64,000 bases of DNA, taken from an uncultured bacterium. GTDB lineage: Bacteria > Acidobacteriota > Aminicenantia > Aminicenantales > Saccharicenantaceae. Numbering within the stretch: the stretch's first letter is position 1; the number at the start of each line of letters is the position of its first letter. This document shows positions 19,050 to 61,476 of the stretch, piece by piece. The position numbers and the translations under genes were made by a program. Under the pieces are notes generated by a model. It had not been told where the DNA came from and searched no databases. It saw only the letters and a list, made by a program, of their open reading frames with translations. The DNA lies in assembly GCA_963827635.1 (NCBI GenBank), contig CAWHBV010000009.1, positions 204,573 through 268,572 on the forward strand. The letters are read 5' to 3'.

Positions 19050-20139
19050 TTGAGCCTTCGCAGAACAGCCGTCATCTGTACTGGCTGTTTTGCTCTTCGG
19101 TTGTCGAACCGCGCCGGTCCCGCCGGATGTTCTCGAAGCCGATCTTCAGGAACAGGACCTCCGGGGGGCCGGTGCTTCTCTTTTCGCCGCCCAGGAGCAC
19201 TCAGCCTACCTCGGTGCGCTGAAATCCGCCCGGGAAACCCTCCGCCGCGAAAACCTCAAGCTGGGCTGGTTCAGGGACTACGGACGCGTACGCCGGGATT
19301 TCGCCGCCGTCATCCGGGCCGGGAACACGCTGAGGTCGACCGTCCGGTCGGTCGTCGCCCGCCGGTCCGCGGCGGTCGCCGAGGCGGCCGAGACCGTCCG
19401 GCGGCGGCTCCGGACCCTCGACGGCCTGACCCTGTCCATCGTCGAGAGGGGAGAGGCGCGCAAGAAGCTGTCCCGGGCCGCCCTGGCCCTGGCCGAGGCC
19501 GATGCGCTCGTCGCCGGCAGGGACTTCGAGGCCGCCTCCGCCAAGATCAAGTCCGCATCGGCCCTGGCCGCCGAAGCCGAGCGGGTCGTCGTCTCCCACA
19601 TCTCCCGGTACCTCGACCCCGATCAGGTCAGGTCCTGGAAGCAGGCGGCCGAGGAGACGATCGCCGAGTCGAGGCGCCGGGGCAGCACGGCGATCATCGT
19701 CAGCAAGCTCGAGCGGCGCCTGTCGGTCTACAAGAGCGGCAACCTCTACCGGACCTACGAGGTCGGGCTGGGCTTCAACGGCCTGGCCGACAAGCGCTAC
19801 GCCGGGGACAACGCCACCCCCGAGGGCCGCTACACCGTCGTCCGCAAGATCCCGTCCAGCCTGTACTACAAGGCCCTGCTGATCAACTACCCCAACGACG
19901 AGGACCGGAGATGGTTCGCCCGGGAGAAGGCCCGGGGCACGATCCCGCGGTCCGCGTCGATCGGGGGGGACGTCGAGATCCACGGCGGGGGCCAGGACAG
20001 CCTGACCCGCGGCTGTGTCTCTCTCGACAACGGCAAGATGGACGAGCTCTTCGCCCTGGCCGCGGTCGGCACGCCGGTCACGATCATCGGGACGATGGAG
20101 CTCGAGAACTACGTCATCAAAGCGATCAGGGACAACTGA
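19050..20139 (+). CDS. L,D-transpeptidase (YkuD domain) lipoprotein; frameshifted inside the signal peptide near 19075.
   Basis: TTG at 19050 gives MSLRRTAVI, and the next frame gives VLAVLLFGC (lipobox). The C-terminal catalytic domain is ATPEGRYTV...IGGDVEIHGGGQDSLTRGCVSL. Length is 1 mod 3. Confidence 0.85.
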
Positions 20140-20140
20140 C

Positions 20141-20791
20141 ATGACCATCAAGCGCATCCTCATCGCCGCGGCGGCCCTCCTCTGGCTCGGCTTCCTCTCG
20201 GTCGTCGGCGCGGCCTATTACATCGGCCTCAAACAGGCCGCGGGGTGGCCGGGGGACGGCCGGGACCAGCCCGTCGCGGAGAAGGACGTGGCCAAGACCG
20301 AGAAGAACGTCCAGCAGCTGGAAAAGAAGATGAGCGGGCTGCTGCCCCGGGGACCCTACATCGTCATCGATACGGCCCAGAACCGGCTCTTCCTCAAGAA
20401 CGGGAGCCAGGTCGTCCGCGAAGCGGTCGTCTCCTGCGGCAGCGGCGTCGTCCTCGAGGAGCCGGGCGGCAAGAAGCGGAGCTGGGTCTTCGACACGCCG
20501 CGGGGGGAGTTCAGCGTCAAGTCCAAGATCACGAACCCGTATTGGGTCAAGCCGGATTGGGCCTTCATCGAGGAGGGGGAGACGATCCCCAAGGGGATGG
20601 AGGACCGGATCGAGGCCGGGACGCTCGGCGATTACGCCCTCGGGTTCGGGCAGGGCTTCTTCATCCACGGGACGCTCTACACCCGGCTCCTGGGCCGGAA
20701 CGTCACCCACGGCTGCGTCCGGGTCGGGGACGAGGACCTCAAGGCGATCTTCAAGGCCGTGCCCGTGGGCGCGAAGATCTACATCTATTGA
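20141..20791 (+). CDS. L,D-transpeptidase (YkuD domain), membrane-anchored
   Basis: N-terminal TM segment, then IVIDTAQNRLFLKNG...FFIHGTLYTRLLGRNVTHGCVRV. The frame is intact and starts 1 nt after the previous stop. Confidence 0.88.
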   Translation: MTIKRILIAAAALLWLGFLSVVGAAYYIGLKQAAGWPGDGRDQPVAEKDVAKTEKNVQQLEKKMSGLLPRGPYIVIDTAQNRLFLKNGSQVVREAVVSCGSGVVLEEPGGKKRSWVFDTPRGEFSVKSKITNPYWVKPDWAFIEEGETIPKGMEDRIEAGTLGDYALGFGQGFFIHGTLYTRLLGRNVTHGCVRVGDEDLKAIFKAVPVGAKIYIY

Positions 20792-21590: not shown

Positions 21591-23561
<1,971 letters not shown>

Positions 23562-23626
23562 GCCCGGCGGCCTCTGACGGATAGAATGGGGTCCGAACGG
23601 GCCCCGCGGCTGTCCGAGGTGCGGTC

Positions 23627-24756
23627 ATGGCGAAAGATTACTATCAGATCCTGGGTGTCGCCAAGGGGGCGGCCCTCGCCGACATCAAGAAGGCCTACCG
23701 GAAGCTCGCCCGCAAATATCATCCGGACCTCAATCCCGGGGACAAGACCGCCGAAGCGCGGTTCAAAGAGATCCAGGAGGCTTATGCGGTCCTCAGCGAC
23801 ACGAAGAAGCGCGCCCAGTACGACCAGTTCGGCGACCTCGGCGGGACCGCGGGGGGACCGGGACCGGGCGGGCCGGGCGGACCCGGGGGCCCGGGCTTCG
23901 AGGGCTTCGATTTCTCGGACTACGGCTCTTCGACCTTCCGGGATTTCTTCGAGAACATCTTCCGGGGGGGCGGGGTCCAGGGGGCCCAGGCCGCGGCCGG
24001 AGGGCCGGAGCGCGGCGAAGACCTCCAATACTCGATGCAGCTCGGCTTCGAGGACGCCATCCACGGCGTCCAATCCCGCATCCGGATCAACCGGCTCGGG
24101 GCGTGCGACGCCTGCGGCGCGCACGGCCACGTCTCCGGCGGCCGGAGGAGGCCCTGCCCGAGCTGCGGCGGAAGCGGCCGGGGCACCGTCCAGCGCGGCT
24201 TCATGAGGTTCGCGGGCGCCTGTCCGGCCTGCGGCGGAACGGGCCAGACCCCGGGGGAGGCCTGCCGGGCCTGCGGCGGGCAGGGCACGGCCCCGAAGTC
24301 CGACCTCATCAACGTCCGCATCCCGGCCGGGGTCGACAACGGTTCGAAGGTGCGGGTGCCGGGCCGGGGCAACGCCGGGCGCAACGGCGGCCCTCCGGGC
24401 GACCTCTTCATCGTCATCGAAGTCGCCCCGCACGCCTATTTTCCGCACGGGAGGGGGCCGACATCTCGGTCAAGGTGCCGATCACGGTGCCCGAGGCCAC
24501 GCTCGGGGCGAAGGTCGAGGTGCCGACCCTCTGGGGCCGGACCACCATCCGCATCCCGCCGGGGACGAAGTCGGGCCAGAAGTTCCGGATCAAGCAGCAG
24601 GGCGCGCCCGCCGCCGGCGGCAGGGGCCGCGGCGACGAGTTCGCCGAGGTGACGATCGTTCCGCCCCCGCACGACGACGAGCGGGTCCGGGAGCTGATGA
24701 AGGAATTGCAGAAGGTCTCGGGCCCGAACCCGAGGGAGACGACGGGGATGAACTGA
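23627..24756 (+). CDS. dnaJ: DnaJ-family co-chaperone with four CxxCxGxG zinc-finger repeats; frameshifted as read near 24448.
   Basis: J domain (DYYQILGV...YHPDLNPGD), a Gly-rich linker, and [32 protein letters not shown] repeats. The C-terminal part is in ORF 24103..24756. Confidence 0.88.
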
Positions 24757-24757
24757 G

Positions 24758-25171
24758 ATGAAAAAGCCGCGTCCGGAAAAGAAGAAGGGCCCCAGCAAGT
24801 ACTACCACATCTCCAGCGTCTCCGAGATGTACAGCATCCACCCGCAGACCCTCCGGCTCTACGAGCGGGAAGGCCTGCTCACGCCCTCCCGGAGCGAGGG
24901 CAACACCCGGCTCTACTCGGCCGAGGACCTCAAGAGGCTCGAGCTCATCCTCAACCTGATCCGGGAGCTCGGGGTGAACCTGGCCGGCGTCGAGGTCATC
25001 CTCAACATGCGGGCCAAGATCGAGCGCATCGAGGGCGAGGTCAACGAGTTCCTCGAGTACGTCCAGCGCGAGTTCTTCGTGGGCAAAGAGCAGGAGTTCG
25101 AGGCCCGGAAGAGGGCCCTGGTCAGCGTCCGGCCGGGCGGCGTGGTCAAGGTCCGGTCCGGCGACGAGTGA
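24758..25171 (+). CDS. hspR: MerR-family heat-shock regulator (HspR/CbpM-like)
   Basis: YHISSVSEMYSIHPQTLRLYEREGLLTPSRSEGNTRLYS is a MerR helix-turn-helix. Its position directly after dnaK-dnaJ fits this call. Confidence 0.8.
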   Translation: MKKPRPEKKKGPSKYYHISSVSEMYSIHPQTLRLYEREGLLTPSRSEGNTRLYSAEDLKRLELILNLIRELGVNLAGVEVILNMRAKIERIEGEVNEFLEYVQREFFVGKEQEFEARKRALVSVRPGGVVKVRSGDE

Positions 25172-25174
25172 GGC

Positions 25175-26018
25175 ATGGATCCCAGGGATTTCGTCGATTC
25201 GAGGAATCTCAGGCATTACCTGGAGGAGATCTCCAAGTTCCCGGCCCTGACCGACGAGGAGGAGAAAAGGCTCGGCGAGAGGATCCGCGCGGGGGACATG
25301 GACGCCGTCCAGGCCCTGGTCAAGTCCAACCTCAAGTTCGTCGTCTCCTACGTCAAGAAGTACCGGGGCATGGGTCTGGGACTGCTCGACCTCATCGACG
25401 AGGGCAACGTCGGGCTGATCGAGGCGGCCAAGCGCTTCGACCCGACGAGGGGCGTCCGCTTCGTCTCCTACGCCGTCTGGTGGATCCGCCAGGCCATCAT
25501 CCACGCCCTGACGCTCTATTCCCGCGCCTACGCCATCCCCCAGAAGCTGGCCGACCAGATCTCGCTCATGAGACGGAAGACCGCCGAGCTCAAGAGCGCC
25601 CTGGGCCGCGATCCCAACCGGGAGGAGATCGGCCGGGCCATGGGCATCTCCGAGACCGACGTCGAGGACCTCGAGATCCTGGCCGAGAGGAACCTGTCCC
25701 TGAGCGACAGGGTCAACGACGACGACTCTCGAGGTCGAGGACAGGATCAGCGACGCCGCGACGCCCTCGATCGAATATCAGATCATCAAGGCCTCCGTTC
25801 AGGCGCAGATCAGGGGGATCCTCGGGGAATTGGATGAAAAAGAGGCACTTGTGCTAAAATTGAGGTTCGGGCTGGACGACGACAGGCCCCGGACCCTCCA
25901 GGAGATCGGGGCCCAGCTCAAGCTGACCCGGGAGAGGATCCGCCAGATCGAACAGAAGGCCATGAGGAAGCTCAGCCGGTCGACGAAGCTCCAACATCTC
26001 AAGGGATACCTGAATTGA
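25175..26018 (+). CDS. RNA polymerase sigma factor, sigma-70 family (group 2/3-like, about 280 aa); frameshifted as read near 25727.
   Basis: Region 2 (LVKSNLKFVVSYVKKYRGMGLGLLDLIDEGNVGLIEAAKRFD...FVSYAVWWIRQAI) and region 4 (LQEIGAQLKLTRERIRQIEQKAMRKL) lie in two frames. No RpoH box was seen. Confidence 0.85.
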
Positions 26019-26762
26019 GCGACAAAGACGGTCTGCGGCAGGTGCCAGGGGACGGGCTGGCTCCTCGAGGACGCCGGCGGCTCCCAGGTGGCCAAGAGGT
26101 GCGCCTGTTTCGGCGAGCGCTGCAAGCAGGCCCTGTTCGACCAGGCCAACATCCCGCGCCGCTACCAGGTCTGCAGCCTGGACAACTTCGAGGTCCACAA
26201 CGACTCCCACCGGGACGCGCTCAAGATCTCGCGCCAGTTCGTCAAGAACTTCCCGGCCCAGGACGTCGGTCTCGTCTTCATCGGCCCCTGCGGGGTGGGG
26301 AAGACCCACCTGGCCGTGGCCATCCTCCAGGAGCTCATCCGGACCAAGGACGCCTCCTGCATCTTCTACGATTTCCGGGACCTCATCCGGGAGATCCAGA
26401 GCACCTTCACCCCCGAGTCCACCCTTTCGGAGTCGGACATCCTCGCCCCGGTCTTCTCGTCCGAGGTCCTGGTCCTCGACGAGCTCGGGGCCAAGAGGAC
26501 GACGGCCTGGGTCGAGGAAACCGTCTTCTACATCATCAACCACCGCTACAACCACAAGAAGCTGACCATCTTTACGACGAACTATCCGGACATCGACGAG
26601 GAAGAGGACAAAAGGGACTCGTTCTACAAGAAGGGCGGGGACAACCTGATCGACCGCATCGGCGTCCGGCTCCGCTCGCGCATCTACGAGATGTGCAAGG
26701 TCGTCGAGATCGGCGGCGACGACTACCGCAAGATGGCCAAGCAGGCCAGCTACCGGTTTTAA
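26015..26762 (+). CDS. DnaC/DnaI-like AAA+ helicase-loader-type ATPase with an N-terminal Cys-rich zinc ribbon; frameshifted as read near 26029.
   Basis: TTG at 26015 overlaps the sigma factor stop. The sequence has VCGRCQGTGW...KRCACFGERC, then ANIPRRY..SLDNF, Walker A GPCGVGKTHLA and Walker B VLVLDELG. Confidence 0.75.
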
Positions 26763-26791: not shown

Positions 26792-26819
26792 TTGCCTTTT
26801 GAGTCCCTCGTGCTAAATT
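26792..26819 (+). promoter_or_regulatory. Possible tRNA promoter (TTGCCT, 16 nt, TAAATT)
   Basis: Read directly, 13 nt upstream of the tRNA 5' end. Confidence 0.3.
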
Positions 26820-26831
26820 ATTGCGGCCTGC

Positions 26832-27089
26832 TCCTCGGTAGCTCAATCGGCAGAGCGGGTGGCTGTTCGCGGAAGCGGAGAAAGGTAATCCTGAGCCAAG
26901 CCTCATCCCGGCGGGATGAGGAAGGTGCAGAGACTAGAGCATCGCTCGTACCGCGGCCCGTGGCCGCGGGAAGCGCCCGGCACCCTCAGCCCTAATTCGG
27001 GACGGGTGAAGAGATAGTCCAAGCCCAGAAGAAATTTTGGGGCACTTGTAACCACTAGGTTGCAGGTTCGAGTCCTGCCCGAGGAGCCA
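26832..27089 (+). tRNA. tRNA-Asn(GUU) gene interrupted in the anticodon loop by a 182-nt intron (exons 26832-26866 and 27049-27089, CCA encoded)
   Basis: Cloverleaf folded by hand: acceptor UCCUCGG/CCGAGGA, U8, D arm GCUC-AAUCGGCA-GAGC, anticodon stem GGUGG/CCACU, loop CUGU|UAA, variable AGGUU, T arm GCAGG-UUCGAGU-CCUGC, G73, CCA. It closely resembles E. coli tRNA-Asn. Confidence 0.85.
26867..27048 (+). ncRNA. Group I intron, related to the IC3 tRNA-Leu/tRNA-Ile intron family, with an atypically short 5' domain
   Basis: Core strings GGUAAUCCUGAGCCAAGCC (26884-26902), GGUGCAGAGACUAGA (26924-26938) and AAGAGAUAGUCC (27009-27020). P7 pairs GACUA with UAGUC. The P6 hairpin spans 26901-26921 and a GAAA-capped P9 spans 27024-27041. 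A U precedes the 5' splice site and a terminal G is at 27048. Confidence 0.72.
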
Positions 27090-50970: not shown

Positions 50971-51603
50971 CGGACGAAAAAGACAAGCCCGGCGACGAGA
51001 TCGAGTTCATCCCCGAGGCGCCGCCCGAAGGCGGGGAACCGGCTCCGGACCCCCCGGCCCCCGAGAGGAAGGAGCCGGAGGGAGAAGGCCGCCCCGGCCG
51101 AGGGATCGCGCCACCTCAAGGAGAAGCTCAAGAAGAAGGAGGCCGAGGCCAAGGAGCTCCGCAAGGAGCTCGACGAGCTCAAGGAGACGAACCTGCGGCG
51201 CCTGGCCGACATGGAGAACCTGCGCAAGCGCTTCGACCGGGAGAAGACCGAGTTCCAGCAATACGCCCTGAGCGGACTCCTGCTCGAGCTGCTGGGCATC
51301 GGCGACAACTTCGAGCGGGCCCTCCAGAGCGCCGCCGCGGACCCCGAGGGGAAGTCCTTCCGGGAGGGCGTCGAGCTCATCCTCCGCATGTTCCAGGGGC
51401 TGCTGGCCAAGAACGGCGTCCGGCCGATCGAGCTGAAGGACCGGGCCTTCGATCCGAACTTCCACCACGCCATGGTCGTGGAGGAATCCGAAAACGTCGA
51501 GGAACCCGAGGTCGTCGAGGAGCTGCAGAAAGGCTATCTGCACCACGACCGGCTCCTGCGCCCGACCCTGGTCAAGGTCGTCGTTCCGAAGAAAGGACAA
51601 TAG
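50967..51603 (+). CDS. grpE: Nucleotide exchange factor GrpE; frameshifted as read near 51092.
   Basis: LRRLADMENLRKRFDREK...DNFERAL...FDPNFHHAM...GYLHHDRLLRPTLVKV. Confidence 0.9.
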
Positions 51604-51607
51604 CCCC

Positions 51608-53191
51608 ATGGGACGCGTCATCGGCATCGACCTCGGCACCACGTACTCCTGCATCGCCTGCCTCGAAGGAGGCCGGCCGGTGGTCATCCCCAATCTCGAG
51701 GGACTGCCGACGACCCCGTCGGTCGTGTCCTTCACGAAATCCGGCGAGCTCCTGGTCGGGACCCTGGCCATGCGCCAGGCGGTCACCAATCCGGAGAACA
51801 CCTTCTTCGCGGTCAAGCGGCTGATCGGCCAGAAGTTCCGTTCGCCCCAGGTCCAGGAGGCCATGGCCCGGCTGCCGTACCAGCTGAAGGAGGCCGCCAA
51901 CGGCGACGTGGCCCTCGTGCAGGGCCAGCGGACCCTCAGCCCCCCCGAGATCTCGTCGCTCGTCCTGGGCCATCTCAAGGCCTGCGCCGAGGCCTTCTTC
52001 AACGAGCCCGTGACCGAGGCCGTCATCACGGTGCCGGCCCACTTCAACGACGCCCAGCGCCAGGCGACCAAGGACGCGGCCGTGATCGCCGGCCTGACGG
52101 TCGAGCGGGTCATCAACGAGCCGACCGCCGCCGGGCTGGCCTACGGGCTCGAGACGAAGAAGAACGGCCTGGCCGCCGTCTACGACCTCGGCGGCGGGAC
52201 CTTCGACATCACCATCCTCGAGTTCAGCGACGGCGTCTTCAACGTCCTGGCCACGAACGGCGATTCCTACCTCGGCGGCGAGGACTTCGACAACCGCATC
52301 CTCGAATGGCTCGGCGCGAGCTTCCGGGCCGAGAACGGGATCGACATCGCCGAGGACAAGCTCGCGCTCCAGCGGGTGAAAGAGGCCGCGGAGAAGGCCA
52401 AGCGGGAGCTGTCCTTCACGGCGGAGACGGAGATCAACCTGCCCTTCATCGCCTCCGACAAGGCGAGCTCCAAGCATCTCCGCAAGACGCTCAGCCGGTC
52501 GACCTTCGAAGCCATGACCGCGGACCTCGTCGAGCGGACCGTGCCCCGCATCGAGCAGGCGCTGGCCGACGCCCGGCTGAGCCCCGACCGGATCGACCAC
52601 GTCATCCTGGTCGGCGGCCAGACCCGGATGCCCCTCGTCAAGGAGCGGGTGACCAAGTTCTTCGGCCGGGCCCCGGAGGAGAAGGTCGACCCCGACCAGA
52701 TCGTCGCCGTGGGCGCGGCCATCCAGTCGGGCGTCCTCGACGGCCAGGTCCGCGACCTCGTCCTCCTGCTCGACGTCACGCCGTTCGCCCTGGGGATCGA
52801 AACGGAGAACGACGGCTACGAGATGATCATCGAAAGGAACACGACCATCCCGACCCGCAAGGTCAAGGCCTTCACGACCGTGGAGCACAACCAGAGGCGG
52901 GTCCGGATCCACGTCCTCCAGGGCGAGGGCTTTCTCGCCTCGCTGAACAAGTCGCTGGCCGTCTTCGAGCTGGTCGGGATCGAACCGGCCCCGGCCGGCG
53001 TGCCCCAGATCGACGTCACCTTCGAGATCACGGCCGACGGCCTGGCCCAGGTCACGGCCAAGGACAAGGAGACGGGCCTGGAGCAGAGGATCGAGGTCCG
53101 GCCGTCCTCCGGGCTCTCGACCAAGGAAGTGGAGGAGATGCGGAAGAGGCAGACGGGATTGGACGTCGCCAAGCTGGGAGCCCATGGCTAA
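51608..53191 (+). CDS. Hsp70/DnaK paralog lacking the C-terminal helical lid (527 aa)
   Basis: [21 protein letters not shown] and [10 protein letters not shown] motifs. The substrate-binding beta domain is present. The frame ends ...[28 protein letters not shown], 8 nt inside the next gene. The frame is intact. Confidence 0.9.
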
Positions 53192-54317
53192 GAAGGATTA
53201 CTATCAGGTCCTGGGTGTCTCCCGGGACGCCGCGCCCGAACAGATCAAGAAAGCGTACCGTCAGCTCGCCCTGAAACACCATCCCGACCGCAATCCCGGG
53301 AGCAAGGAGGCCGAGGAGAGGTTCAAGGAGGCCGCCGAGGCCTACAGCGTCCTGGCCGACGCCGAGAAGAGGTCCGTCTACGACCGCTTCGGGCACGACG
53401 GGCTGCGGGGCGAGGGCTATCAGGGCTTCTCCGGATTCGATTCGTCCGTCTTCGAGGATTTCGAGGACATCCTGGGGAACCTGTTCGGTTTCAGCTTCGG
53501 CGATCTCTTCGGCGGGCGGGAGCGCGGCCGGGGAAGCCGGCGCAGCCGCGGCCGGGACCTGGCGCTGGAGGTCGAGATCGGCCTCGAGGAGGCGGCGGCC
53601 GGCGTCGAGCGGGAGATCAAGCTCAGCCGGGCCGAGACCTGTCCGGCCTGCAAGGGCTCGAAGCGGAAGCCCGGGACCACGGCGGCCTCGTGCCCGACCT
53701 GCGGCGGGCGGGGCCAGGTCCGCTACCAGCAGGGCTTTTTCACCATGGCCAGGACCTGCCCGCAGTGCCAGGGCGGCGGCGAGATCAACGCCTCGCCCTG
53801 CGAATCGTGCCAGGGCAAAGGCCACGTCAAAGAGAAGAGGGCCCTCAAGGTCCGCATCCCGGCCGGCGTCGACGACGGGTCGCGGCTGCGGCTGGTCGGG
53901 GAAGGGGAGGCCGGCGACCAGGGCATGCCCGCGGGCGACCTCTACGTCGTCACCCGCGTCCGCAAGCACCCCTTTTTCGAGCGCGAGGGCAACGACCTCG
54001 CCTGCGAGATCACGCTGTCCTTCACCCAGGCCGCCCTGGGCGCCCGGATCGAGATCCCGACGCTCGAGGGCAACGAGGTCCTCAAGGTCGCGGCCGGCAC
54101 CCAGCCCGGCGAGATCATCCGCCTCAAGGGCAAGGGCGTCCAGGACGTCGCCGGGCGCCGCAAGGGCGACCTCTTCGTCAAGGTCCTGGTCAAGACGCCC
54201 GAGAACCTCTCCAAGGAACAGAAAGCCCTGCTCGGCAAGCTGGCCGAGCTCCGCGGCGAAGACATCGAATCGGTCGACAAGAGCGTCGTCCACAGGCTGA
54301 AGAACATCTTCCAGTGA
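53184..54317 (+). CDS. dnaJ: Molecular chaperone DnaJ (type I)
   Basis: J domain with HPD, a G/F region, four Cys repeats ([32 protein letters not shown]) and C-terminal domains. The frame is intact. Confidence 0.95.
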
Positions 54318-58195: not shown

Positions 58196-60857
58196 AGGCC
58201 CAGCGCGTTCGCGAGACCTTCCTCCAGTACTTCGCCGACCGGGGCCACCGGATCGTGCGGAGCTCGCCGCTCCTGCCCAAGGACGACCCGACCATCCTGT
58301 TCACCAACGCCGGGATGAACCAGTTCAAGAACGTCTTCCTGGGCCTGGAGAAGCGGGGCTACAACCGGGCGGCCACGGTCCAGAAGTGCATGCGGGTCAG
58401 CGGCAAGCACAACGACCTCGAGACCGTCGGCCGGACGGCCAAGCACCACACCTTCTTCGAGATGCTCGGCAACTTCTCCTTCGGCGACTATTTCAAGAAG
58501 GAGGCCGTCGCCTACGCCTGGGACCTCGTCACCCGCGTCTTCGGCCTGCCCGCGGAGCGGCTCTACGCGACGGTCTACCTCGACGACGACGAGGCCTACC
58601 GGCTCTGGGCCGGCGAAGTGGGCGTTCCGAAGGACAGGATCTTCCGCTACGGCAAGAAGGACAACTTCTGGGCCATGGGCGACACCGGGCCCTGCGGCCC
58701 GTGCTCCGAGCTCCACTACGACCTCGGCGCCGCGATCGAGCCGGGCGATCCGTTCTCGCTGATCGAGAAGGGGAGCGACCGGTTCGTCGAGCTCTGGAAC
58801 CTCGTCTTCATGGAGTTCGACCAGGGCGAGGACGGCGTCATGCGCCCGCTGCCGTCCCCGTCGATCGACACCGGCATGGGCCTCGAGCGCATGACCGCGG
58901 TCGTCCAGGGCAAACGAAGCAACTACGACACCGACCTGTTCCTGCCCCTGATCGAGAGCGCCGCCGGGATGGCCCGGCGCGAGTACCCCGCCGGCGACGA
59001 GGGCGACGTCTCGCTCCGGATCATCGCCGACCACGTCCGGGCCGCGACCTTCCTCATCGGCGACGGCGTCTCCCCGGCCAACGACGGGCGGGGCTACGTG
59101 CTGCGGCGGCTCATCCGCCGGGCCTTCCGGCAGGGCAACCTCGTCGGCATCGACCGGCCGTTCCTGTTCGAGCTCGTCGGCCGCGTGGCCGACATCATGA
59201 AGGACGCCTACCCCGAGCTCCTGACCTCGGCCGCCTACATCTCCAAGGTCTGTCTGGCCGAGGAGGAGCGGTTCGCCTACACGCTGGCCTCGGGCCTGCG
59301 GTATTTCGACCAGGTCGTCCGGGAGACCCGCGAGAAGGGGGACACGGTCCTGCCGGGCGGGCAGATCTTCAGGCTCTACGACACCTTCGGCTTCCCGCTC
59401 GACCTGTCGCAGGAGCTGGCCCGGGAGAAGGCCCTCGTCGGTCGACGAGGCCGGTTTCGCCCGGGAGCTCGAGGAGCAGAAGCAGCGGGCCCGCCTGTCG
59501 TGGAAGGGCGAGGCCAAGCGGAAAGAGAAGCAGATCTACGACGAGTTCAAGGACCTCAAGGTCCGGACCCGGGTCCACGAAGCCGCCGAGCTCGCGGACG
59601 TGCTCGTCCTCGGGCTCCTCAAGGACGGGCGCCGGACGGCGGTCCTCGCTGCGGACGAATCCGGCGAGATCATCCTCGAGGAGACGCCCTTTTACGCCGA
59701 AGCCGGCGGCCAGGTCGGGGACACGGGCACGCTCAAGGGCCCGAAGTTCTCCGCGCTGGTCGGGAACACGTCGTACGCCACTCCCGACGTCGTCGTCCAC
59801 GCCGTCAAGGTCCTGGCCGGCGAGGTCCGCGAAGGCGACCGCGTCGACGCCGTGCCCGATCTCGTCCGGCGGCAGGCGACGTCGAACAATCACACCGCGA
59901 CCCACCTCCTCCACGCGGCCCTGCGCCAGGTGCTGGGCGACCACGTCAAGCAGTCCGGCTCTCTCGTCTCGCCGTCCCGCCTGCGGTTCGATTTCACCCA
60001 CTTCGCCCCCCTGACCCGCGAGGAGCTCCGGCGCGTCGAGGAGATCGTCAACGACCGGATCCGGGCCGACATGCCTCTCGCGACCCGGGTGACGACGCTC
60101 GAGGAGGGCATCCGCGAGGGGGCCACGGCCATCTTCGAGGAGAAGTACGGGGAGACCGTCCGGGTCGTCGGCATCGGCGACTTCAGCAAGGAGCTCTGCG
60201 GCGGCGTCCACGTCCACGCCACGGGCGAGCTGGGCCTGTTCAAGATCGTCTCCGAGGCGAGCGTCGCCGCGGGCATGCGCCGCATCGAGGCCGTGACCGG
60301 CGAAGGGGCCACCCGCTACGTCCGTGAGCTCGAGGACGAGCTCGCCGGGTTGGAGAAGAGCCTGGGCGTCGCGCGCAGGGACCTCCCGGCCCGCATCGAC
60401 AAGCTCCAGGCCCGCATCCACGAGCTCGAGAAGGAGAACCGGGAGCTGCGAAAGAAGATCGTTTCGGGCGCAGGCTCCATCGATCGCGCGGTCCTCGGTC
60501 GAAGGGAAGGGTACCGTCATCAAGGAGATCAAGGGGATCTCCGTCGAGGTCCGTCGCCTCGACGGCCTGACGATGGCCGAGCTGAGAGAAAAGGCCGACG
60601 ACCTGAAGAGCAAGCTCCAAAGCGGCATCGTCGTCATCGGTTCCGCGGCCGAGGGCAAGGCCTTCATCGTCGCCTCGGTGACGAGGGACCTCACCGGCCG
60701 CATCCAGGCCGGGGCCATCATCAAAGAGTTGGCCCCCGTCATCGGGGGCGGGGGAGGGGGGCGGCCCGATTTCGCCCAGTCCGGCGGCCCCGGCACCGCG
60801 GAGCTCGACCGGGCCCTGGGCCTCGTCCCGGAACTCGTCGAACGGCTGGCCGGCTGA
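58192..60857 (+). CDS. alaS: Alanine--tRNA ligase; two frameshifts as read (near 59440 and 60490).
   Basis: [29 protein letters not shown] and the editing-domain motifs HTATHLLH and CGGVHV. The C-terminal DHHA1 [11 protein letters not shown] is in a third frame. ATGA overlap with pilT. Confidence 0.93.
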
Positions 60858-60909
60858 CCCCCGGAATCACCCCCGGCGGGGATTGCCAAGCGGAACGGTT
60901 TTTGTCAAG

Positions 60910-61476
60910 ATGAGGACGAAGCCGATGGTGCACTTCAAGAGGATCCTCGCGGCCGGCGCCCTTTTCGCCCTCGTCCCGTATCTCGCGGGGATGGGGGCGG
61001 CGGACCTGCGCAAGCTCTACCATCCCCTCATCAAGAAGGCCGCCGAGAAGCACCGCATCGACACCGATCTCATCCACGTCGTCATCCGGGCCGAGTCGAA
61101 CTACGACGCCTTCGCCATCTCCTCGGCCGGGGCCATGGGGCTGATGCAGCTGATGCCGGCGACGGCCAGGCAGTACGGCGTCGGCAACGTTTTCGATCCC
61201 GCGCAGAACATCGAGGGCGGCGTCCGTTACCTCAAGGACCTCGTCCGGCTCTACAACGGGCAGACCAAGCTGGTCCTGGCCGCCTACAACGCCGGGCAGG
61301 AAGCGGTCCGGAGGTACAAGGGCATCCCGCCCTACCCGGAGACGAAGAGCTACATCGCCGGGATCATGAAGAGCTACAAGAAGCCCACGGTCTCGACGAA
61401 GAACCCCACCTACATGGTCAAGGACGCCACGGGCCGCACGGTCCTGGTGAACGATCCGGAGACGGCCAAGAAATAG
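60910..61476 (+). CDS. Lytic transglycosylase (SLT domain)
   Basis: VIRAESNYDAFAISSAGAMGLMQLMPATA...AYNAG. Confidence 0.88.
   Translation: MRTKPMVHFKRILAAGALFALVPYLAGMGAADLRKLYHPLIKKAAEKHRIDTDLIHVVIRAESNYDAFAISSAGAMGLMQLMPATARQYGVGNVFDPAQNIEGGVRYLKDLVRLYNGQTKLVLAAYNAGQEAVRRYKGIPPYPETKSYIAGIMKSYKKPTVSTKNPTYMVKDATGRTVLVNDPETAKK

Follow-up and report, generated by a model that had tools for sequence, protein, structure and literature searches.

The window analysed here, a stretch of 64,000 nucleotides (nt) of contig CAWHBV010000009.1, contains at positions 26832-27089 a chromosomal tRNA-Asn(GUU) gene of a Candidatus Aminicenantes bacterium. The gene is interrupted between U35 and U36 of its anticodon (GU|U) by sequence belonging to a group I intron, like those known from the anticodon loops of bacterial tRNAs. 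What interrupts it is a genuine group I intron in a copy that is either defective or mis-assembled: its 182 nt are the 3' three-quarters of an intron of 246-247 nt, and not a whole, self-sufficient intron of 182 nt. As to how the truncation arose, comparison with related sequences favours, with about an even chance, an artefact of assembly or consensus calling, produced from a population polymorphic for the intron.

The exons are well defined. Exon 1 (26832..26866, + strand, as are all features described here) supplies tRNA positions 1-35 and ends at anticodon G34 U35, and exon 2 (27049..27089) supplies positions 36-76 including the encoded CCA. Once joined they form, as the initial annotation had proposed, a 76-nt tRNA-Asn(GUU) that ARAGORN calls cleanly, with the acceptor stem UCCUCGG/CCGAGGA and discriminator G73. 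An intronless tRNA-Asn(GUU) gene occupies the syntenic locus in several relatives (L002-4, L007-9 and L134), its sequence being 100% identical to the joined exons of the window, and two of these intronless genes (L002 and L007) score 69.9 bits on the Rfam tRNA model RF00005, to which exon 2 of the window gives a partial T-arm match. The unspliced gene, on the other hand, is invisible to both ARAGORN and the Rfam tRNA model: ARAGORN finds no tRNA of any kind across the 64-kb window, and Rfam at its gathering thresholds finds nothing at the locus. In its intron-aware mode ARAGORN calls a tRNA-Thr(UGU) with a 182-nt intron at position 33, a call that was rejected because the intron would then end in U and not in G, and that is also contradicted by the intronless alleles, which read CUGUUAAC and are therefore tRNA-Asn.

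Alignment with the relatives shows the insert to be a full-length intron from which the first 64 nt (GUUAUCGCAGCUUCCACGAGAGAUCGUGGUUGAAAAACCGGGUGAAUUCAGGGAAGCCUUCCCU) are missing. From end to end the tRNA gene measures 258 nt in the window, as against 322 nt in L133 and 323 nt in L005, which has one additional base in a hairpin loop. The 64 nt that are missing hold the sequence GUUA, able to pair with the first bases of exon 2, UAAC (P10; P stands for paired region and J for joining segment), and the guide GCAGCU, whose pairing with the end of exon 1, GGCUGU, forms P1 with a U.G pair at the splice site. They also hold the whole of P2 (CCACGA-GAGA-UCGUGG), the 5' strands of P3 (CCGGGUG), P4 (UUCAGG) and P5, and part of P5a. 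The junction of the window reads GGCUGU|UCGCGGAAGCGG, and the loss starts at most 1 nt from the exon-intron boundary, with a microhomology of 1 nt. Two probes for the missing 5' module, run over the whole 64-kb window with up to 3 mismatches, did not find it. Every group I ribozyme has P1, P3 and P4 in its core, and because the P1/P10 guide, P2 and the 5' strands of P3, P4 and P5 are missing, the RNA of the window is predicted from its sequence to be unable to select the 5' splice site or to fold the P3-P7 and P4-P6 core, and should not self-splice; its transcript would therefore be a tRNA with 182 extra bases in the anticodon loop. Two substitute partners were considered by eye and rejected: CUCAG in the internal loop of P8 (26985-89) as a partner for CUGAG of P4', for which the topology is wrong and which lies in a stretch not conserved outside the Aminicenantes, and CGGGUG of the exon (26856-61) as a partner for CGCCCG of P3', which leaves P4 without any replacement.

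What remains of the intron can be followed element by element. The insert (26867..27048) corresponds to nt 65-246 of the full-length intron of L133; identity over this stretch is 98.7% with L133 and 97.4% with L005. It matches the Rfam group I intron model RF00028 with 41.1 bits (E = 3.7e-9) in a sensitive scan of the region and with 46.2 bits (E = 4.6e-11) when the insert alone is scanned; the search that the initial annotation had proposed with this model thus gives a significant E-value and, at the same time, a score below the gathering value of 50 bits. In both runs the match spans model positions 74/81-253 only, and the alignment flags the pairs of P3, P4 and P5 as lacking their 5' partners. 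The insert opens with a remnant of the P5a hairpin (UCGC-GGAA-GCGG-AG, 26867..26880), which is neither P1 nor a guide; it aligns with CUUCGC-GGAA-GCGGAG of the full-length introns and folds on itself. Then follow the orphan 3' strands of P5 (AAAGG) and P4 (CCUGAG, 26890-26895) with J5/4 (UAAU) between them (26881..26895), marked as truncated pairs by RF00028, the partner of P4, UUCAGG, not being present in the window; merely 17 nt of the insert precede the J5/4-P4' string GGUAAUCCUGAG. P6 (CC/GG) with its P6a hairpin (26896..26925; 26901-26909 pairing with 26913-26921) is intact in the Rfam alignment, and compensatory changes are found in the family at all nine P6a pairs. J6/7 (UGCAGA) and the 5' strand of P7, GACUA at 26932-36 (26926..26936 together), fit the RF00028 consensus and are invariant in 36 of 36 aligned sequences. 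Between P7 and P3' stand two extra hairpins (26937..26969), one P7.1-like (26937-26947) and one P7.2-like (26951-26958/26962-26969), which are an insertion relative to RF00028 and are conserved and covarying in the tRNA-Asn intron family. The 3' strand of P3 (CGCCCGG, 26974..26980) is again an orphan, since its 5' partner CCGGGUG, paired with it in the full-length homologues, is not found in the window. P8 (CACCC/GGGUG, inner CCC/GGG; 26981..27008) is intact according to the RF00028 alignment and to covariation, and it is followed by J8/7 (AAGAGA) and the 3' strand of P7, UAGUC at 27015-19 (27009..27019), which are invariant or nearly so in the family and fit the consensus. The last part (27020..27048) comprises a P9.0-like helix (CAAG 27020-23 with CUUG 27045-48), the P9 hairpin with its GAAA loop (27024-27041) and the terminal G (27048), supported by covariation and by a G as the last intron base in 36 of 36 sequences.

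The copy in the window therefore has the P7 with J6/7 and J8/7, the P6, P8 and P9 and the 3' terminal G that characterise group I introns, and lacks their P1, P3 and P4 helices. The initial annotation was right about the P6 hairpin at 26901-26921, the P7 pairing GACUA/UAGUC, the GAAA-capped P9 and the terminal G, all of which are present and fit RF00028, and the signature strings that it quoted lie where it had placed them. Its broader claim, that a group I intron splits the tRNA-Asn gene, stands for the group I sequence in the anticodon loop and has to be given up for the completeness of that intron, which is without guide, P2 and the 5' strands of P3, P4 and P5. It had further proposed a P1 between U26866 and GCGG at 26875-78, and this pairing is the basis of the reading of the 182 nt as a complete, unusually small self-splicing group I intron, with CUGU (26863-66) as the exon strand. 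The pairing is formally possible through two G.U wobbles, and P6, P7, P8, P9, J6/7, J8/7 and the terminal G are indeed intact. However, GCGG is homologous to the 3' strand of P5a and pairs with UCGC, and the true guide, GCAGC(U), is one of the elements lost with the first 64 nt; local folding likewise pairs UCGC with GCGG and not with the exon, with a stability no better than that of shuffled sequences. Moreover, the 3' strands of P3 (26974-80) and P4 (26890-95) have no partner in the intron or in the 64-kb window, these two helices belong to the core of all group I ribozymes, positions 1-73/80 of RF00028 are unmatched and the score stays below gathering, and in all other resolved members of the family, among the matches listed, 65 nt or more separate the splice site from the J5/4 string. 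A complete mini-intron is thus very improbable.

The relatives show what an intact member looks like. Full-length introns of 243-248 nt, inserted at the same site (CUGU|...G|UAAC), are found at 12 Aminicenantes/Acidobacteriota loci, some of them known from locus alignments (L001, L005/6, L133 and L137; 243-247 nt) and the others from a genome scan (L021, L033, L042, L044, L061, L105 and L118; 244-248 nt where both ends are present). RF00028 matches them from positions 1 to 253, with 87.8 bits for L005, 86.3 for L001, 87.9 for L133 and 88.5 for L137, and the copies tested among the 12 score 73-90 bits, while 19 tRNA-Asn introns from many phyla reach 72.6-105.8 bits over the same positions. In these intact introns the exon end GGCUGU and the guide GCAGC(U), a few bases into the intron, form P1 with the U.G wobble at the splice site; P2, P3, P4 and P5/P5a come next, P6, P7, P8 and P9 complete the core, and the intron ends in G. 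This structure was examined by projecting an explicit P1-P9 model on an alignment of 35 full-length tRNA-Asn introns with the window (36 sequences). Standard pairs occupy 91.1% of the cells (74.5% in shuffles). The covariation score of 0.45 compares with 0.16 in shuffles and with 0.06-0.13 when the partners are slid by 1-3 columns, and none of 500 shuffles reaches the observed value on any measure. Among the 35 full-length introns P2 is 100% paired with compensatory changes at six of its six pairs, P3 is 100% paired with such changes at five of seven, P4 is 100% paired, with UUCAGG as the partner, and almost invariant, and all 35 have the U.G at the splice site; P6a, P8 and P9 covary in the homologues and P7 is invariant. 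The introns of L133, L005/L006, L001, L137, L033, L105 and L021 share with the window the gene, the syntenic locus, the insertion site, P6, P7, the P7.1/7.2-like hairpins, P8 and P9, and differ from it by their 64 additional 5' bases and by matching RF00028 from end to end. The retained intron is 97-99% identical among L001, L005, L133 and the window, whereas the flanking genes are only ~84-85% identical, a gap that suggests that the intron is under strong constraint or else has recently moved horizontally between Aminicenantes lineages.

No comparable truncation was found elsewhere. A 17-mer common to the truncated and full forms (GGTAATCCTGAGCCAAG) matched at least 120 stretches in representative genomes. 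Among the matches listed, 94 have a downstream intron core and every one of these 94 has the 5' strand of P4 upstream, none showing a truncation comparable to that of the window; ~27-29 of 121 listed matches are without an intron core and are chance matches, ~70 of which are expected in the whole collection. In every resolved copy the 5' splice site lies 65-413 nt from the core (J5/4) string, against 17 nt in the window. The junction 20-mer, sought in 241 million metagenome records, was found in 3 contigs, all of them chance matches with no tRNA or intron nearby.

Intron-plus and intron-minus alleles both occur among close relatives at this same locus, and a mixture of such alleles would offer an origin for the truncation. 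The consensus would have followed intronless reads over one stretch and intron-containing reads over the rest; the real gene would carry the full intron of ~246 nt, and a minority of cells none. A consensus that dropped one segment in this way would explain the coincidence of the loss with the exon-intron boundary, its uniqueness and the lack of decay in what is left: L133 differs at 3 of the 226 nt that it shares with the window (the retained 182 nt and exon 2), and of these differences one turns a C-G into a U.G pair and the other two lie in a loop, so that no pair is broken. There are other signs that the assembly is unreliable around the gene. Insertions absent from all relatives shift the reading frame of three genes: one of 2 nt in dnaJ (near 24444), and single bases in the gene of the sigma factor (near 25727) and at the beginning of dnaC (near 26023), dnaK being also out of frame at both ends (window ~21600-26030). 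A living cell could not have all these essential genes broken, and the consensus therefore contains errors; the assembly appears to be indel-prone. Further same-strand overlapping open frames are present in the window (e.g., 19054-20788, 50971-54314 and 59225-61473), which suggests similar indel errors elsewhere in it.

Several points weigh against this allele-mixture origin and leave room for the alternative that the 64 nt were really deleted, either by an illegitimate DNA deletion or because a heteroduplex loop formed by alleles with and without the intron was repaired only in part, leaving a splicing-dead intron and a tRNA-Asn pseudogene in a cell that would depend on a second tRNA-Asn(GUU) gene elsewhere. 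The sequence as given does show the loss. The errors close to the gene are insertions of 1-2 nt and not large deletions, and a loss of 64 nt is different in kind. Natural internal deletions exist in the family, in which three introns (L058, L104 and L108) keep only remnants of an intron open reading frame (ORF) with the ribozyme parts intact, and duplicate tRNA-Asn genes are known from at least one genome, as a tandem pair (L070). An exact look-up of four proteins of the window in other assemblies gave no match and thus no independent sequence of the strain, and the chimeric consensus is itself deduced from the consensus sequence. A true deletion has its own difficulties. It is without parallel in the 94 other intron copies among the matches listed and in the metagenome contigs, and since the exons, the promoter-like block and the retained intron are all undecayed, it would have to be very recent. 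A microhomology of only 1 nt is present at the junction, and a random deletion is unlikely to coincide with a splice junction; slippage between two TCGC repeats, considered as its cause, was rejected because it would leave GUUA after the exon, where it is absent. No second tRNA gene of any kind was found in the 64 kb, and loss of a single-copy gene would be lethal because, to our knowledge, tRNA-Asn(GUU) is the sole decoder of AAC and AAU. A real deletion is nevertheless a possibility to be taken seriously, to which we give somewhat less than an even chance.

There is also the alternative that the truncation is real and the gene works. The 64-nt module (guide, P2 and the 5' strands of P3, P4 and P5) would then be transcribed separately or come from a sibling full-length intron, and would assemble in trans, making a natural bipartite group I ribozyme that splices a bacterial tRNA. 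Such a module, of sequence GUUAUCGCAGCU...CCGGGUGAAUUCAGGGAAGCC, would base-pair with exon 1 as well as with the orphan strands P3', P4' and P5'. The retained part keeps all the conserved core bases and pairs, with unmutated orphan strands, and the group I ribozymes of Tetrahymena and Azoarcus have been reassembled from fragments in vitro. But the module is not found in the 64-kb window with 3 mismatches allowed, the split arrangement occurs in no other genome among the matches listed, and the lack of decay is explained equally well by an artefact or by a recent deletion. Splicing in trans is very improbable, to about the same degree as a complete mini-intron.

Introns in bacterial tRNA genes offer the nearest comparisons. 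The tRNA-Leu(UAA) intron of cyanobacteria and plastids (e.g., Anabaena) also interrupts the anticodon loop after a U, and tRNA-Leu(UAA) introns with the same 17-mer were found among the matches listed (L015, L032, L090, L121 and L131). The strings CCUGAGCCAAG, GGUGCAGAGACU and AAGAGA-AGUC are shared with this group. The Leu site is U34|A35 and that of Asn is U35|U36; P7 is GACUC in the tRNA-Leu(UAA) intron and GACUA in the tRNA-Asn family. The core strings resemble those of the tRNA-Leu and Azoarcus introns. The two hairpins between P7 and P3' of the Asn family are not known to occur in those introns or in subgroup IC3, whose periphery has P2, a short P5 and P9.0/P9 and is without P7.1/P7.2. 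Arg(CCU) introns with the same core string (L057, L119 and L127, among the matches listed) are inserted after anticodon position 36. The introns of Azoarcus tRNA-Ile(CAU) and Agrobacterium tRNA-Arg(CCU) are, like that of the window, small, without ORF, placed in the anticodon loop and sporadic in distribution (Reinhold-Hurek and Shub 1992). They differ in their host tRNAs and in their site, which follows position 36 (seen for Arg) and not U35. The tRNA-Asn family resembles, in turn, the homing cycle of mobile group I introns, having intron-plus and intron-minus alleles at one locus and an HNH-like ORF or its remnants. In the established model of this cycle the ribozyme keeps its function until the intron is removed by a precise loss, unlike the copy in the window, in which the ribozyme itself is cut.

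The only bacterial tRNA hosts of group I introns named in the literature covered, which did not extend to subscription journals, are Leu, fMet, Ile and Arg, in agreement with the classical hosts Leu, fMet/Ile and Arg listed in the initial annotation, and no description of an Asn(GUU) host was found in it. The initial annotation regarded such a host as unusual, an opinion that the genome matches do not bear out: among the matches listed, this intron type is hosted most often by tRNA-Asn, with the split at U35|U36, and at least 53 of 120 are strictly defined tRNA-Asn(GUU) introns. The Asn(GUU) host is thus not rare, and it is widespread in public genomes though not described in the accessible literature. 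These introns occur in at least 15 phylum-level groups, mostly uncultivated, under the record labels WWE3, Saccharibacteria, Woesebacteria, Beckwithbacteria, Magasanikbacteria, Aminicenantes/Acidobacteriota, 'Deltaproteobacteria'/Desulfobacteraceae, Gammaproteobacteria, Omnitrophota, Elusimicrobia, Chloroflexi, Planctomycetes, Clostridia, Stahlbacteria/WOR-3, Cloacimonadota, Binatia, Ratteibacteria, Bacteroidota (Cyclobacteriaceae), Cyanobacteria and Vecturithrix. ARAGORN places the same core string in further candidate hosts, namely Gln CUG (L017, L034 and L129), Tyr GUA (L020 and L074), Phe GAA (L087) and Lys CUU (L125), which are also outside the classical list.

Some members of the tRNA-Asn family are much longer. 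Introns of 540-592 nt (L013, L023, L035, L060, L064, L066, L072, L076, L078, L085, L086, L088, L113 and L114) carry an ORF of ~115-170 codons with the motif CxxC...FHH...CxNCH...H, and this ORF lies just upstream of the guide; the Pfam HNH model gives it 17.9 bits, below the cutoff of 21.4. The introns of L058, L104 and L108 (329-365 nt) keep only the C-terminal remnant of this ORF, and the presence of the ORF in some introns and of remnants in others looks like a cycle of gain and decay of a homing endonuclease. In Candidatus Vecturithrix (L070:4779-5398) two tandem tRNA-Asn(GUU) genes stand 353 nt apart, each with its own group I intron of ~250 nt.

The mis-splitting of the window gene as tRNA-Thr is common in the family. 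Intron-aware ARAGORN reads many of these loci as tRNA-Thr(UGU/CGU/GGU) (e.g., L025, L054, L055, L083, L084 and L128), because GU/UGU repeats are present at both junctions, and this accounts for most of the 'Thr' calls in other genomes, where the tRNAs concerned show the acceptor stem of tRNA-Asn, UCC...GGA. Standard tRNA finders miss or mis-split these genes, and genomes may therefore wrongly seem to lack tRNA-Asn.

The gene order around the tRNA (dnaK, dnaJ, hspR-like, sigma factor, dnaC-like, tRNA, lipoprotein, porin and pstS) is common to the relatives. The adjoining upstream gene (26015/26088-26762) codes for a DnaC/IstB-like ATPase, whose homologues are 80-93% identical, those with a name belonging to Candidatus Aminicenantes. 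Between this gene and the tRNA lies a block conserved in the upstream alignment of the relatives, TTGCCT-17 nt-(TG)CTAAATT (26792..26820), which on the basis of its motifs is a possible sigma-70 promoter of the tRNA gene; a promoter consensus scan made no call at 26792..26820, where 8 of 12 positions matched. In two of the intronless relatives a large serine recombinase gene is found directly downstream of tRNA-Asn (L008:3338-4936 and L009:3372-4970), which suggests that the 3' end of tRNA-Asn is used as an integration site by mobile elements.

What seemed to be a small intron in a new host is, then, an incomplete copy in an error-prone assembly, and it is unsuitable as an example of a minimal ribozyme without confirmation at the level of reads. 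If the truncation is real, this copy would capture the rare moment at which a deletion has killed the ribozyme of a tRNA intron. The family to which it belongs hides tRNA-Asn genes, and these hidden genes affect the completeness checks of metagenome-assembled genomes.

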